Shown piece by piece: positions 624 to 61,709 of a DNA stretch of 64,000 bases (position 1 is its first letter; each line of letters starts with the position of its first letter). Under the pieces are notes generated by a model that worked only from the letters and a program-made list of their open reading frames with translations, had not been told where the DNA came from and did no database searches. The position numbers and the translations under genes were made by a program. Origin of the DNA: Eledone cirrhosa. Taxonomy: Eukaryota. The stretch covers positions 92,132,001 to 92,196,000 of the forward strand of contig OZ024742.1 of the NCBI GenBank assembly GCA_964016885.1, read 5' to 3'.

Positions 624-713
624 TCCTCTTGATAAGTCGGCAGACCTCGCAAAGACTCTATATCTTTATGATGTATTGTTTTTGTTTATGCCACGAAACT
701 ACGTAGTCGAGGA
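624..713 (+). ncRNA. Type I hammerhead ribozyme, U3-A8 core variant (copy 1)
   Basis: Stem I tcctc(624-628)/gagga(709-713); core TTGATAA; stem II closed by gt(c)ggca/tgccac around a long insert; GAAA at 695; palindromic stem III ACTACGTAGT; predicted cleavage after GUC at 708. Confidence 0.8.
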
Positions 714-1216
714 GTCTAGGAGCAGTTTAGGTATGATACATTTTATTACCAATTATATCTAAATGTTTCTTCTCTCTTCATAATGTATTTTTAACTCTGA
801 TACTGGTTCAGTCTAATTCAACCGGATTGGTCTGTCCCAGTCATTCATTGAGCAACATCGGTAAGGTTGGCACCATTAACTCACGGTTGGGTGTGGATGC
901 ATTCATGTATATGTGTGTGTCCGCATGTATCTGTGTGTTTCTAAATATATTGTTCATAACTCCCTCTGGTCGAGTAATCTTTGAAGTGTGATGACTGCTG
1001 GAAAGCTGCCATTACTCATACTTCTCGCCTCCTTCACCACCTCTTCTACGGCTTCGATATAAATACCCCCTCCGCCTCCGTGGTATTTTCTTCGGGGTTA
1101 TAAGAGGCTTAGCTCTGTTTCTCGACCGTTATATCGCGTGACTATGTCCCCCTCCGCCTTTTGGGATTCTTTCTCACGTCGTGTAGACGCGTTCTTGAAG
1201 CTAGTAAAATGAGGTA

Positions 1217-1306
1217 TCCTCTTGATAAGTCGGCAGACCTCGCAAAGACTCTATATCTTTATGATGTATTGTTTTTGTTTATGCCACGAAACTACGTAGT
1301 CGAGGA
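1217..1306 (+). ncRNA. Type I hammerhead ribozyme, U3-A8 core variant (copy 2)
   Basis: Same motif as 624-713, shifted by 593 bp; predicted cleavage after C1301. Confidence 0.8.
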
Positions 1307-2010
1307 GTCTAGGAGCAGTTTAGGTATGATACATTTTATTACCAATTATATCTAAATGTTTCTTCTCTCTTCATAATGTATATATATATATATATATATA
1401 TATATATATATATATATATATATATATATATATATATATATATATATATACTGAATTGTTTATCATCTTTTCAATCTACAGGGAAATTCGTATTTTTCTG
1501 CCATGTTTACATGCCACCAGATTAGATATGTGAATATATTTATACAAGGTGGCACAATTTCTGTTACACACTCTGTATTTATACAGATATACCTTCATCA
1601 TATATGAAGATATATACGATATGTTTATGTATGAGTTTTAAGCTGTGCAGCGCATCTTCGTTACCATCCCCGGGGAAACTCCTTCTCCATTCTGTCCGCC
1701 GGGGCTGTGGGAAGGCCAGCATGTGGGACCCCATTTGTTCACCATACAGAGAGATGGGGAGGGCGAGAGAAATGCGGCGATGACAGTGGGAGTTCGACTC
1801 AGCGACGTTCGGACCATATCCTTATGGTTGTGTTTATTATTTATATAGAAAATACCAAGCTGATCATGACTATTGCCTGTGTACTGCTGCCACAACTATG
1901 TTTAGTGTAAGAAGACCAGGGACTAATGATGTTCACTCATTGGCTATTGAGAATAGAATATTCATGCGTATAAAAATGTTGGTGTATGCTCGAGCTGGGT
2001 GACATTAATT

Positions 2011-2200
2011 GCGGTGGCTTGGCAGTATCGGTAGAGGGTCGGACGCCATGCTTTGCAGCAAAGAGTTACGGCCCTTTACACTCTGAGTTCATATCCCGCC
2101 GAGGTTAACTTTACCTGTCATCCTTACGGGGGCGATAAAATAAAGTACCAGTAATGCACTGGAATAATTGCTGGCCTTGTGCCAAAAGTAGAAACAATTG
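2011..2200 (+). mobile_element. tRNA-derived SINE, major family (full length)
   Basis: A-box-like tggcagtatcgg, B-box-like gagttcatatc, central ...catccttacgggggcgataaaataaagtacc, tail ggccttgtgccaaaagtagaaacaatt. Roughly 25 related copies or fragments occur in the window. Confidence 0.85.
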
Positions 2201-4224
2201 ATTAGTAGTATCTGTAACACACGCTATGTTAGTGCTACAGCTTAGTAAGTAGATATAATATATGTCCGTCTAACTGAGTAACTTACTGACTATTCCAACA
2301 TGAAGTGGTTCTTCTGATCGGGAACCGTGTGTTAGTCTGGGCGTGTTGTTCACCACGATAAACAACATCTGTAGTTTATGGTGAACGCAGCAGAGACCGC
2401 TAGAGCTGTGTATGTGTATGCAATGAAGATGGTTAGATATTTAACGCCGCAGACTTGCTCAACAATGGACGCCATCTTCTCCCAGGTATGCGTACGATTC
2501 TCCCAAATTAAATTATTTCAACTTAGTTTTCTAAGATGACGAACCTAGTTTTGTTTTTGTGCTTCTTGCTCTGCACACACCAAGAATCTTACTAAGCCAA
2601 CACTCAGCCACGCCAAATTGTGACAGTTCATAACTCCATACAACCGTCTTCATCACTTTGGATATTTCCACTAAGTCACAACGTGTCAAAGATGTTTAGC
2701 GGTTTATTTAGCATCGGCCGCTGAAAATTATTATACATTCAATTTAATTATGGAGATTTGTATAAATCTATGATCCTATATGCTTAAGTAGTGCGTATTT
2801 CTGAGAACTGCACCCTGTGCGGCTGTCCAATTGACATTAGTGGTAGCACCGATTCTGTGTATTTGTGCTCTTTGTATATTGTAATTACCTGTATAATTGT
2901 AGTTTTTTTTTTTAAATTACTATGCGTAATCTGATTTGTTGTTGATGCCCCAAGTCAGTTCTGAGTTAACAAATCTATAGTCAAAGTTAGTCCAACAGAG
3001 GTGATCCTATCTTTTTGTATATCGATGACTACATTATCTAATATTTCATTCCCATTTCTTAGACGATAAGGTATGTATTCCTCGTGAGAAGGATCTAGCG
3101 GAATTTTGTCAAGGTAACAAAAAATAATGTTTGTTTTGATGCATTGTTCAGAAAAAAATGAACATCACAAGTTATGATCCACGACCATTTTCTCGTTCTA
3201 CTTCTATCTAATATATATGTTTTCACTAGGACTAAGTGTTGATGTTAAACCAAACGACAGATTAAGTCTACCAATCAAGAGAGCCACATCGGGATTTACA
3301 CTCAAAATGCAAAAAAATTGAAAATCATACCACAGTATATACCGCCCGTTATTTAAACTATATCACCAATCTATTACTCTAGACTGGTATTTTATTTATT
3401 GACTCCGAGAAGATGAAAAGCAAAGATGACTTCGGTGAAATTTGATCTCAGAACGCAAGGCGCTGAGCTGACCAGCCGCAGGTGTGAGCCTCGCGAGATG
3501 GAATGGCTCAACCATCCTCCGGAGAAACGCCTTCTCCAATCTGTCCGCCGGGACTGTGGGGCGTCCAGCACGTTGGACCCCATTTGCTCATAATACAGAG
3601 AGATTGGGAGGGTGAGAGAGATGGAGGTGATGACAGTGAGAGTTCGGCTCTTCTGTGTTCATTAGAACCACTTAGAATTTAGTTTGTATCTCATCAGATG
3701 ATATGATAAATGAACGAAAAAAAAATAACACAAAATTGAGACTGCTTCATGAGCAAAGTTTTCTACCCGTAGTCATCCAGTATCCGCTTCTTCCGGAATG
3801 GTAAGTAACAGAGTTCATATTTTTACTTCCAAATAACATGAGAAATAAATCAATTTCAAGCGGCAATCTAAATCAGCTTGCAGATCCATCAAGGCAGAAC
3901 GGCGGACAAAATGTCTCATGTATTTAATGTATTTAATTATGTTCGGCGTTCAATCTCACCGATATTAGCTTTGAATTTCTTTTTTCCAAGATTGATAAAA
4001 TAAAGTACTAGTCAAATGCTAGGTCGATGTAGAATTCTTATAATAAAACACCCAATAAATAAATGGAATTCTAATAAGAAGGGACAAATAAGCCATGAGG
4101 CATAATCCATGTATCTACCTTCTGATTTTCGAGGAACAAAGCTGCGAAGTAACTAAATTCGTGACATTAAATATCTTCCCAAACTCACTATCCAGATCGC
4201 TAAAAAAATACACATTAATATTGA

Positions 4225-59739: not shown

Positions 59740-60090
59740 TTTGTAATGAGCGAAAACATACGATCGGGAATACAAAGCAGCCAAAATGGGGTCTTTGGAG
59801 TAACGTTACTCGATAGAGTGCATAGCTCGGAGATCAGTGTGTCACTGTACGTCGAGCTGCTACTTCTCCGAATTGAGAGATCACAGCTCCGATACTATGT
59901 GCATGTGGTTAGAATGTCTCAGATTTTACGGGCAAAACCAAGTGGCAGGAGACCCAGGTTATACCCCAAACAAATGGTTGGATAACATCCATTAGCTTGG
60001 CTGGTTTCGCTTGGGGATCTAGCCGCATCAGTCGGAAATGGCTTCTTCTGAAAGAGTGTTTGAGAATTCTGTCTCTCAAGAATAAGTAGA
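59740..60090 (+). pseudogene. RTE/Expander-like LINE C-terminal remnant
   Basis: GVTLLDRVHSSEI..L.VELLLLRIERSQLRYYVHVVRM and G.RPR, the typical RTE C-terminal pattern. Confidence 0.75.
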
Positions 60091-60411
60091 CAAAGAAGAT
60101 GAATATATATATATATACACACAAATTACACAAGCATATAATTACCCCCACAGCATCACACTCTATGATCAGCTCATTCCTCTACTTAACTCCTATTTAT
60201 CTCAAACCTTATACTCTACAATAACTATTAGGAATAAACATAAGGTTACCACCATTTAATATAACTACTATAGCTTACTGATATTATATTCAGTAATGGA
60301 TAGATAATAATACAATGAGACCGTTAATGTATTATAGGAAAATAAATTATATTTATAATTAAATATATAAATTAATAGCATTATATATAAGTGACTCACT
60401 TATAACATAAT

Positions 60412-60907
60412 ATAATTGTTTCTACTTTTTTGGCACAAGGCCAGCAAATACCCAGTGCATTACTGGTATTTTATTTTATCGACCCCGTAAGGATGAAAGG
60501 CAAAGTCAACCTCAGCGGGATTTGAACTCAGATCGTTAAGGTACGTAACTATGCTGGAAAGCATGGCATCCGACCCTCTTCCGATACTGCCAATCCACCG
60601 CTATATCACTTATAACATAATATAATGTATATTAATAACACAAGAGATTTAACTAATTGGACCTGTAAACAACTATACATTTTTTCTATAGCTTACTTAT
60701 ATTTTATTCATAATGGATAGATAACAATATAATGAGACCTTTAATGTATTTTAGGAAAATAGATTATATTTAAAATTAAATATAAATAAATAGCATTATA
60801 TCCCGCCGAGGTTGACTTTGCCTTTCATCCTTACGGGGTCGATGAAATAAAGTACCAGTAACGCACTGAGTAATTGCTGGCCTTGTGCCTAAAGTAGAAA
60901 CAATTAT
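60412..60907. mobile_element. Two major-family SINEs (60412-60602 minus, 60801-60907 plus) in adjacent tandem units
   Basis: Consensus matches; the first has TSD tcacttataacataatataat. Confidence 0.85.
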
Positions 60908-61662
60908 ATAAAAGAGATTCACTTGTAACACAATATAATGTATATTAGCACAAGGAATTTAACTCATTGCAGCTGTAAACAACTATACATTTTTTCTATT
61001 TTTTCTATCACATACAAATTAATCGCTAATTACCTCCCCTTTCACATTAGCTCCCCTTAATATAGATCTCAAACTCACTTCCGGAAATTAAACCGTTAGA
61101 AGAATCACTCCAGAACAACTCGAACCCGGGATAACAGTATAATAGGACCAATATACAATCCATAACTGTATCTTATTATAAACATTCACTAAAATAAAAT
61201 ATAACCAATGTAATGGAAAAGATAACAATAATAATAATACTCTCAACACATGCCCATTTGAACATTACTGAAACAATTATCATACTACATCCACCATAAA
61301 CTCATAATTCTAATACACAAACACCTTTGCCTGCTTGATATGCTTGTAAACCTATGTTATTTTATGTGATACCTTTGCCATACAGCCTAGAACCATTGCT
61401 TGTTTACTACCTAACTGTCCTGTATATGCCTAAAGCATTTACACTCTCTATACTGCTTTAATTATTATACTATTCTCTTGTAATCCCCTTTCACATGCAT
61501 TCCACTCTGTGCCTTTTTAATTATTATACAATTCTCTTGTAATCTCAGTCACATCCATTCCACTCTGTAAATACGTAACTGTTGATGACAACATTAATAT
61601 CCATGTGTCTATATGATTGTTCAGTTGAATAGGAAGTTAATTATATGTCCAAACTTTGCTAG

Positions 61663-61709
61663 TGCTCCAAGGAATCCAAACGAGAGTTTGGAAGAAACGA
61701 TTGTCAGCA
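61663..61709 (+). ncRNA. Degenerate hammerhead related to 14360-14408
   Basis: tgct CCAAGGA atccaaacgagagtttggaa GAAA CGATTG TC agca. G5 is mutated, so it is probably inactive. Confidence 0.5.

Follow-up and report, generated by a model that had tools for sequence, protein, structure and literature searches.

Does a concentration of unrelated hammerhead folds in one short part of a cephalopod genome mark an exceptional locus, and which elements brought them there? The question is raised by a stretch of 64,000 nucleotides of Eledone cirrhosa (assembly GCA_964016885.1, contig OZ024742.1, positions 92,132,001 to 92,196,000, forward strand), called the window below. A first-pass annotation had described at least five sequence-unrelated type I hammerheads here, in unusual density, and attributed them to Penelope reverse transcriptases (RTs) such as the one encoded at 62795-64000. 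The motifs are very probably type I folds located at the 3' ends of Penelope-like elements (PLEs; families B, C, D, F and I) and in non-coding tandems (families A and E) likely copied by Penelope RTs, mostly as truncated copies beside (TA)n and at an ordinary density. The window carries end-pieces of at least eight families of Penelope-type elements and their likely non-coding passengers, each with a hammerhead fold; three of the families (F, I and J) had been missed earlier.

Hammerhead folds in the window and in the genome

The window was scanned with a descriptor that allows C3-G8 or U3-A8 in the core and either U or C at position 4, and that requires at least 4 pairs in stem I, at least 4 in stem II (one defect allowed) and a self-complementary stem III. 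It superseded a stricter descriptor which, admitting no bulge at the base of stem II, found 4 window sites. As the descriptor was composed after the window motifs were known, 79 random stretches of 10 kb (789,800 bases of the 2,996-Mb genome) serve as the independent test. Intact type I folds were found at seven of the eleven sites named earlier. They belong to five families (A to E), mutually unrelated, as their common matches are low-complexity ones of at most 22 nt. The claim of at least five unrelated folds thus holds for the families but not for four of the sites (15447, 27761, 43143 and 61663), which are decayed or halved. One more lone half motif (GAAA, palindrome and UA) lies near (TA)n at 20345-20400 (-), with no match among the other loci examined.

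Could such motifs be chance matches in AT-rich, microsatellite-rich DNA? Stem III of families B and D is built of AU repeats, and Rfam gathering scores are unmet (see below). The controls leave this explanation next to no probability. The seven window matches compare with 1 match in total in 40 block dinucleotide shuffles and 0 in the reversed window, and the random stretches gave 55 matches against 0 when reversed and 1 and 1 in two shuffles. The genome-wide counts given below for the canonical core and for long stems II argue against it as well, and so does covariation: in 22 sequences of a sister long-stem-II family the three-helix fold, with stem I open, has 92.2% of cells paired and 9 pairs changed on both sides.

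The type I core (C3/U3-U4-G5-A6-N7-G8/A8-A9 and G12-A13-A14-A15.1 with U16.1-H17) is present in intact members of A, B, D and E, while family C departs from it with C4. A plain CUGAUGA search would indeed miss A, C and E. Stem III, said earlier to be self-complementary in all motifs, is a strict palindrome in A, B, C and E and contains one U.G wobble in D. When the palindrome rule was dropped, 99 genomic stretches and the window gave 69 matches (1 in the reversed sequence), with an even-length self-complementary stem III in 53 (G.U allowed), one mismatch in 1 and other forms in 15. The palindrome is therefore a genuine trait and not a descriptor artefact.

The density of hammerheads in the window is ordinary for this genome, contrary to the earlier impression: 109 per Mb compared with 69 per Mb in the random stretches (bootstrap 33-119), the 20 flanking stretches having 16 matches in 200 kb. 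Resampling of the 99 genomic 10-kb stretches gave P = 0.19 for at least seven matches and P = 0.027 for at least five families, both uncorrected for the window having been picked for hammerheads; the number of families is somewhat high. Distinct PLE families nest in each other's (TA)n tails (e.g., at loci L071, L114, L146 and L160), which leads to local clusters of unrelated hammerheads.

Genome-wide pattern counts test core and spacing but not stems, with backward patterns as controls. The canonical core with a 6-nt stem III insert gave 129,751 matches (control 13,242), the U3-A8 core with a 10-nt insert 3,909 (control 616) and the C4 core 15,306 (control 7,487, an excess of about 7,800). A long-stem-II pattern gave 1,411 matches (control 2) and a second one 21,343 (control 45), or about 17,000 after correction, as 20 of the 100 rows listed start at an upstream look-alike. 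The net sum is about 1.5 x 10^5, while the random sample extrapolates to 2.1 x 10^5 (1.0-3.6 x 10^5). We estimate from these figures that the genome holds roughly 1.5-2 x 10^5 hammerhead motifs. In 1.37 Mb of loci enriched for the window's families, 252 matches formed 33 clusters (reversed control 3), and the large, diverse hammerhead-bearing Penelope mobilome proposed earlier is supported by these numbers. Schistosome hammerhead densities may be comparable. Motif counts available for other animals are 126,247 in axolotl, over 6,000 in a coral and about 5,000 in mussel (accessible text of PMC7229834).

Penelope-type ends and non-coding tandem units

Families A to E are represented in the window by the following features:

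110..1381 (+): putative family A retrozyme, a non-coding unit of 593 nt repeated 2.1 times head to tail, then (TA)36
624..713 (+): hammerhead A1, U3-A8, long stem II; cleavage is predicted after 708 and a pseudoknot between 618-622 and 644-648
1217..1306 (+): hammerhead A2, same sequence as A1; cleavage is predicted after 1301
9172..9276 (-): family B, 3'-terminal 105 nt of a putative Hydra-clade PLE
9215-9270 (-): intact family B hammerhead, with a short fold-back stem II copy reaching about 9296
14325..15291 (-): family C, 967-nt piece of the 3' untranslated region (UTR) and pseudo-long terminal repeat (pLTR) of a putative Hydra-clade PLE
14360-14408 (-): family C hammerhead, intact type I fold with a C4 core, 10.1-11.1 unpaired
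61663..61718 (+): decayed family C relative, G5 changed, 80% like C
21545..21953 (no single strand): family D, two pLTR ends from a second putative Hydra-clade PLE in inverted arrangement, (TA)n on both sides
21588-21652 (-) and 21763-21827 (+): intact family D hammerheads
15305..15768 (no single strand): decayed family E insertion with inverted arms; remnant at about 15447-15490 (-), 75% like E, stems II and III broken
27600..27994 (-): family E unit (about 320 nt) and an inverted piece, with a hammerhead at 27761-27806, G12 changed
42657..43320 (no single strand): composite family E insertion containing an intact and a half motif
42813-42863 (-): intact family E hammerhead, U3-A8
about 43143-43190 (+): family E half motif, 5' core strand lost

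Families B, C and D appear to be 3' pLTR ends of Hydra-clade PLEs. At locus L076 family C is arranged as pLTR-ORF-pLTR around an intact open reading frame (ORF) of 830 aa, with an inverted 5' copy in addition; its best 40 scored genome matches are 99-100% alike and C4 is fixed. Family D flanks a frameshifted ORF at L077 in the same way (49% identical to the ORF of C over 337 aa). Family B closes a 1.2-kb 3' UTR after a third ORF at L269, where only the 3' side was seen, and its Hydra assignment rests on the similarity of this ORF to that of C (52% over 336 aa). C and D are placed in the Hydra clade because their translations (RW-basic, DKT, CxCX5C, CxxC and CxH around E and N, no CCHH) match the motifs of PMC8557442. 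PDB and Pfam searches with the 830-aa ORF gave no match. Pieces of Hydra-type ORFs occur in 8 of the 79 random stretches. Among the contig C1 rows of the canonical-core and C4 patterns, family C relatives have both CCGA and CUGA cores, with 10.1-11.1 mostly unpaired; some of the CUGA copies could derive from CCGA by CpG decay.

Families A and E seem to match non-LTR retrozymes: a non-coding tandem unit with one type I hammerhead each, dispersed and with self-paired RNA. The unit of A, for which the ORF scan was made, has no ORF above 60 aa, and its circular fold has z = -6.65 (30 shuffles). First-look searches gave 2,363 genome candidates for A, the best scored copies being 97-99% alike; its copies run in tandem over more than one unit, with inverted pieces among them, and their 5' ends are scattered while their 3' ends fall at three discrete points. 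Family E, with 1,578 genome candidates, shows the same kind of copies at a period of about 320 nt and has z = -7.4 for the circular fold of 316 nt (30 shuffles). The earlier assignment of the window motifs to Penelope pLTRs and non-LTR retrozymes is therefore upheld, by B, C and D on the one hand and A and E on the other. Long head-to-tail retrozyme arrays elsewhere, which are likely source loci, were noticed at L120 (558-nt unit, 14 times), L133 and L177 (311 nt) and L080 (310 nt, E-like). We also considered that A might be the pLTR of the Neptune-type element directly upstream (see below), but the repeat of that element stops at 108 and its internal repeat does not contain A.

As to parentage, the PLE at 62795-64000 cannot itself drive A to E: its own 3' end belongs to a sixth unrelated family (F), it has no common sequence with any of the five, the copy is truncated and frameshifted, and B, C and D appear to be of the Hydra clade. 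Its relatives might drive A or E.

The motifs are not all minimal, as had been thought. In family A the stem II region measures 59 nt and takes part in a covarying pseudoknot, and family E has a stem III of 4 bp that is already stable in the monomer. Stem II of A and several unrelated families passes through a symmetric internal loop into a further hairpin; units of this long-stem-II class measure 558-707 nt, and A, G and H are mutually dissimilar. The 5' strand of the internal loop is complementary to the 4-7 nt immediately 5' of stem I. In nine families the true partners beat permuted ones (46 of 362,880 permutations), in windows chosen by eye once the pattern was seen. For 43 variants the mean longest Watson-Crick run was 4.84 compared with 3.58 +- 0.16 for shuffled partners; the variants are related to one another and 5 of 43 have runs of 3 or less. 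In one family (22 sequences) a single pseudoknot pair is C-G in 12, U-A in 9 and U-G in 1, the exchange probably being a single event. A pairing between the stem II internal loop and the stem I leader is thus supported by covariation as a model for this class. A second pseudoknot, to the 3' flank, looked possible in three long-stem-II families, and stem II regions of 79-110 nt, beyond usual descriptors, were seen at L024, L042, L045, L065, L097, L106, L139 and L255.

In the 99 genomic stretches, 30 of the 32 insertions have a (TA)6+ run at a distance of at most 332 nt and 28 have one within 300 nt, which is true of 32% of random positions. The earlier statement that most motifs sit beside (TA)n is correct for six of the seven intact window sites (39-163 nt); site 624, in the upstream tandem unit, is 665 nt away. 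Between the predicted cleavage site and the (TA)n downstream of it, each family has sharply defined spacings (B 50; D 48-53 and 135-148; C 38-65 and 210-220; E 131-133; A 74-83 and 241-256 nt), while upstream distances are scattered. Insertions are partial tandems whose inverted arms are 5'-truncated; several of these arms turn at stem II, near 9280 in B and at 25820-25935 in J. Dimers are favoured, as supposed earlier: the stem III duplex beats the hairpin in energy in all six families computed, and only the E hairpin is favourable (-1.8 kcal/mol).

These data would fit the following cycle. A tandem pLTR or retrozyme array would be transcribed, two hammerheads would pair via their palindromic stem III and release RNA of unit length by cleavage, and the unit would be circularised or else copied as an uncut multimer. 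The GIY-YIG endonuclease (EN) would nick (TA)n, and the RT would prime 40-250 nt downstream of the cleavage site and read back across it, giving more-than-unit copies, early stops and fold-back arms. As the inserted cDNA starts downstream of the cut site and crosses it, we infer that the template is a circle or an uncut multimer, as proposed in PMC4209133. The turning points of the arms suggest that new cDNA folds back on the stem II hairpin, which would explain the half-motifs. Inverted pairs, being on opposite strands, cannot form dimers in cis, while the A tandem can. Solo and inverted copies are likely inert, and head-to-tail arrays such as A (624/1217) are likely the active sources.

Several results weigh against this picture of Penelope-copied hammerheads. 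Rfam listed no hammerhead among the matches given for the whole window (150 of 179) and returned microRNA-like hairpin noise. When A, B, E and F were scanned singly with the hammerhead families of clan CL00010, none reached the gathering score: the best values were 22.9 bits for E with HH9 (E-value 0.00066; gathering 52) and 16 bits for B with Hammerhead_3 (E-value 0.37; gathering 48.5), and A and F gave no hammerhead match. Monomer folding leaves the hammerhead unpopulated in six of the seven intact sites (stem I probability 0.0-0.3; 0.56 in E). An autonomous partner was found for neither A nor E. Matches to PLE proteins were present in 8 of 77 A/E/G/H loci and resemble separate nested insertions, and the A and E units had no sequence match to the pLTRs compared, a small part of the genome's PLE families. 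The clade names given below to F, I and the upstream element are based on motifs and not on a tree. Cleavage in comparable systems is also weak or rare: minimal PLE hammerheads cleave weakly (PMC4209133), and one of nine Xenopus retrozyme dimers cleaved in vitro according to the accessible text of bioRxiv 2026.07.22.740005. Many motifs of this genome may accordingly be inactive.

Families with changed catalytic cores

The families missed earlier and the Neptune-type elements of the window are as follows:

62097..64000 (-): putative Neptune/Nematis-type PLE, 5'-truncated and frameshifted, 3' UTR up to (TA)n at 62096
63317-64000 and past the window edge: RT domain of this PLE
62795-63316: its GIY-YIG domain
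62356..62389 (-): family F, the window PLE's own minimal hammerhead-like fold, predicted site after 62358
30740..31157 (no single strand): family I inverted pair, U3-A8 and C13, cores at 30878 (-) and 30996 (+)
41488..42474 (no single strand): family I insertion with 246-nt inverted arms, C13, cores at 41649 (-) and 42313 (+)
25820..26003 (no single strand): family J fold-back element centred on loop II, only the hammerhead 3' half on each strand
1..108 (+): 3' end of a putative Neptune-type PLE whose 796-aa ORF (RT and GIY-YIG) lies just upstream of the window; a family A copy is inserted at the tail

The window PLE encodes DKG and a CxxC linker followed by the GIY-YIG domain. The Neptune/Nematis features (DKG, CX2-5CxxC linker, C-terminal EN) were found in it and in the upstream element, and for family I in the EN part only. 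The window PLE and the partner of I may thus be assigned to a Neptune/Nematis type, the two clades being left undivided. Two Argonauta hians proteins (38-40% identity) are among the listed relatives of a PLE protein from this genome.

Family F fails the type I core consensus with A4 and U6 (C3-A4-G5-U6-U7-G8-A9), while stem II, GAAA, the palindromic stem III, the cleavage triplet and the C/G stem I are all in register. Its pattern has 3,572 genome matches compared with 49 in the control, and it is contiguous with the PLE ORF in the window and at 14 loci. At least two subfamilies differ in loop II length, stem III length and flanks; an invariant 16-nt stretch is kept, and the motif is 80-88% alike where the flanks are about 51-69% alike. 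Stem I has 2-3 bp, and the stem III duplex only -0.8 kcal/mol. In a relative at 53% protein identity (L172) the 3' region carries a minimal motif that is nearly canonical and has C4.

Family I fails the consensus with C13. It has four copies in the window and 10 in the random stretches, compared with 6 of a GAAA sister and 1 other, and it keeps C13 and intact stems in copies down to 78-82% overall identity. Judging by the EN part of the ORF at L108/L272, it would be the pLTR of a Neptune-type element. Both F and I keep C3-G8 or U3-A8, G5, G12, the A15.1-U16.1 pair and the cleavage triplet. We regard them, on sequence grounds, as hammerhead-derived folds rather than demonstrated hammerhead members.

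Family J is common and is also present at L079, L144 and L222, with a long stem III; three full forms were seen, having a C3.A8 mismatch and an imperfect stem II base. The element at L082 (1558-9901), which like window positions 1-108 represents a Neptune-type PLE, is a partial tandem with a 2-kb microsatellite-rich 3' UTR and with upstream frames in other reading frames; its pLTR has stem II and GAAA but no recognisable intact core.

A13 is essential for hammerhead cleavage. Pairwise mutagenesis of a type III hammerhead left all single and double CUGA mutants with low activity, except for the C3-G8 swap (accessible text of PMC9901934), while A6C retains weak activity and a viroid tolerates U4C (accessible text of PMC3088659). 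As the double CUGA mutants were not rescued and A13 is required, the prediction for F and I is little or no cleavage, though both are widely spread, and cleavage is then likely dispensable for their PLEs. The main text of PMC4209133 and the accessible text of PMC3088659 contain no A4/U6 or C13 core, and a literature search found no hammerhead report with a CAGUUGA core.

What, then, is the changed fold kept for? One explanation is that A4/U6 and C13 are new active cores that cut as dimers or with the protein of the element. The changes are family-wide, and the positions listed above are kept; natural variants with low but real activity exist (accessible text of PMC3088659). We consider this improbable in view of the lack of rescue among the CUGA double mutants (PMC9901934), the short stem I and feeble stem III duplex of F, and the occurrence of each change in one lineage, hence with no independent covariation. 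Rescue of family I in trans by its GAAA sister via the common stem III was also considered; it is unlikely, as the stem I strands match in about 2 pairs.

It may also be, though we hold this with some doubt, that the cores of F and I are inactive relics, persisting through descent or through a promoter function of the pLTR at the DNA level. A single ancestral event would be enough for each change. The F motif has a TATA-like run and a CAGTTG site which we take to resemble the E-box/Myb consensus. That pLTRs carry a promoter is known (accessible text of PMC6765202). Against this, stem II pairs change on both sides between I and its sister, and in F the lengths of loop II and stem III differ while the pairing is retained, changes that fit an RNA fold.

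A third explanation, possible to about the same extent, is that the hammerhead fold in pLTRs is mainly a non-catalytic signal (RT binding, placement of priming or RNA protection) and that cleavage is incidental. It would account for the invariant A4/U6 stretch across divergent F subfamilies at its high copy number, for C13 with intact stems in a family that outnumbers its GAAA sister 10 to 6, for the excess of C4 patterns and for 3' ends at fixed distances from the fold; hammerhead function in EN+ PLEs has been called unclear (accessible text of PMC8557442). It has to contend with the large majority of motifs, which retain canonical cores, and with the long-stem-II class, which keeps a covarying contact of the kind that speeds cleavage in other hammerheads (accessible text of PMC3088659).

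We tentatively speculate that in PLEs present at thousands to tens of thousands of copies with changed catalytic bases but a kept fold (F, I and C) the hammerhead serves as a structural cis-signal for the telomerase-like RT and not as a cutter, beside unrelated 560-700 nt retrozymes whose pseudoknotted long stem II is missed by standard descriptors. Were this so, Eledone would be among the most hammerhead-rich animal genomes and a natural mutational screen of PLE ribozyme function.

Other repeats and relation to known systems

The window is packed with microsatellites and retroelements. A 666-aa non-LTR retrotransposon frame at 16900-18900 (+), downstream of a (TACA)n array, contains RT (Pfam RVT_1) and, by eye, CCHC and restriction-like endonuclease motifs; its relatives are in L067 and L072. 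An L1/Tx1-like element at 48261-53488 (-) has a 986-aa RT with zf-RVT, an endonuclease piece (51176-51652) and an ORF1-like frame (52481-53488), and a second, partial copy lies at 54190-55510 (-). A repeat similar to short interspersed elements (SINEs) has at least 12 copies (4290, 10146, 35478, 35607, 35848, 37449, 46464, 46761, 56887, 57312, 57960 and 60456) and presumably resembles octopus SINEs.

The basic association of hammerheads with PLEs is already published, as are the U3-A8 core, the palindrome in stem III, pairs on opposite strands and the presence of many families in one genome (PMC4209133). The PLE hammerheads of that report have the same short stem I, long stem II, extra base after A9 and palindromic stem III, U3-A8 included, the same opposite-strand pairs 100-700 bp apart and mostly solo truncated copies. 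They differ in number (about 2,000 and 1,300 in Schistosoma, 4,000 in coelacanth and 9,000 in Xenopus, compared with about 1.5-2 x 10^5 estimated here), and stem II regions of 45-110 nt, the pseudoknot, A4/U6 and C13 are absent from its main text. U4C has been published for a viroid (accessible text of PMC3088659).

Hydra-clade PLEs, as described in the accessible text of PMC8557442, share with families B to D the protein motifs, (TA)n targets, 3' hammerhead, inverted 5' copy and frequent mismatch at the stem II base, and the supplement includes Hydra-1_Obim of Octopus bimaculoides with a hammerhead. Only a small number of extra families was given there, in contrast to ORF pieces in 8 of 79 random stretches and clear pLTRs here; all Hydra rows of its hammerhead table are CUGA, unlike the C4 of family C.

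Animal non-LTR retrozymes are likewise non-coding tandem units with one type I hammerhead each, strongly self-paired and co-occurring with PLEs, and no cephalopod is among the species named in the accessible texts of PMC7229834 and bioRxiv 2026.07.22.740005. The same texts give units of 51-972 bp and 16 families in one coral, and the latter argues that retrozymes derive from pLTRs. Axolotl has about 4 motifs per Mb (accessible text) compared with 50-70 here, and the U3-A8 cores of A and E are unlike those of the animal retrozymes compared.

In pseudoknot hammerheads a Watson-Crick contact between the stem I side and the stem II loop similarly replaces loop-loop contacts; such pseudoknots occur in about 40% of the set of PMC3088659 (accessible text), with U3-A8, U4C and A6C as natural variants. 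In our case the pairing strand would be a side of the internal loop in an extended stem II with a capping hairpin, in repetitive animal elements, a form not found in the hammerhead papers compared, the accessible text of that one included. A search of the accessible literature combining hammerhead with octopus or cephalopod listed no survey, and ribozymes, hammerheads and retrozymes all go unmentioned in the main text of a 2026 repeat annotation of Octopus vulgaris (PMC13282606). These findings point to a very large set of ribozymes missing from catalogues of cephalopod repeats.

Lunse, Weinberg and Breaker reportedly described about 150,000 variants with a reduced stem III that cleave as dimers (2017). 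With respect to the other literature compared, the pseudoknotted long-stem-II class and the fixed catalytic changes in high-copy PLE families appear to be new, and the scale is a further distinction. The need of PLEs for the hammerhead is stated as an open question in the accessible text of PMC8557442. With young autonomous families of canonical, catalytically substituted and tertiary-stabilised form side by side, this genome allows cleavage to be compared with amplification success.

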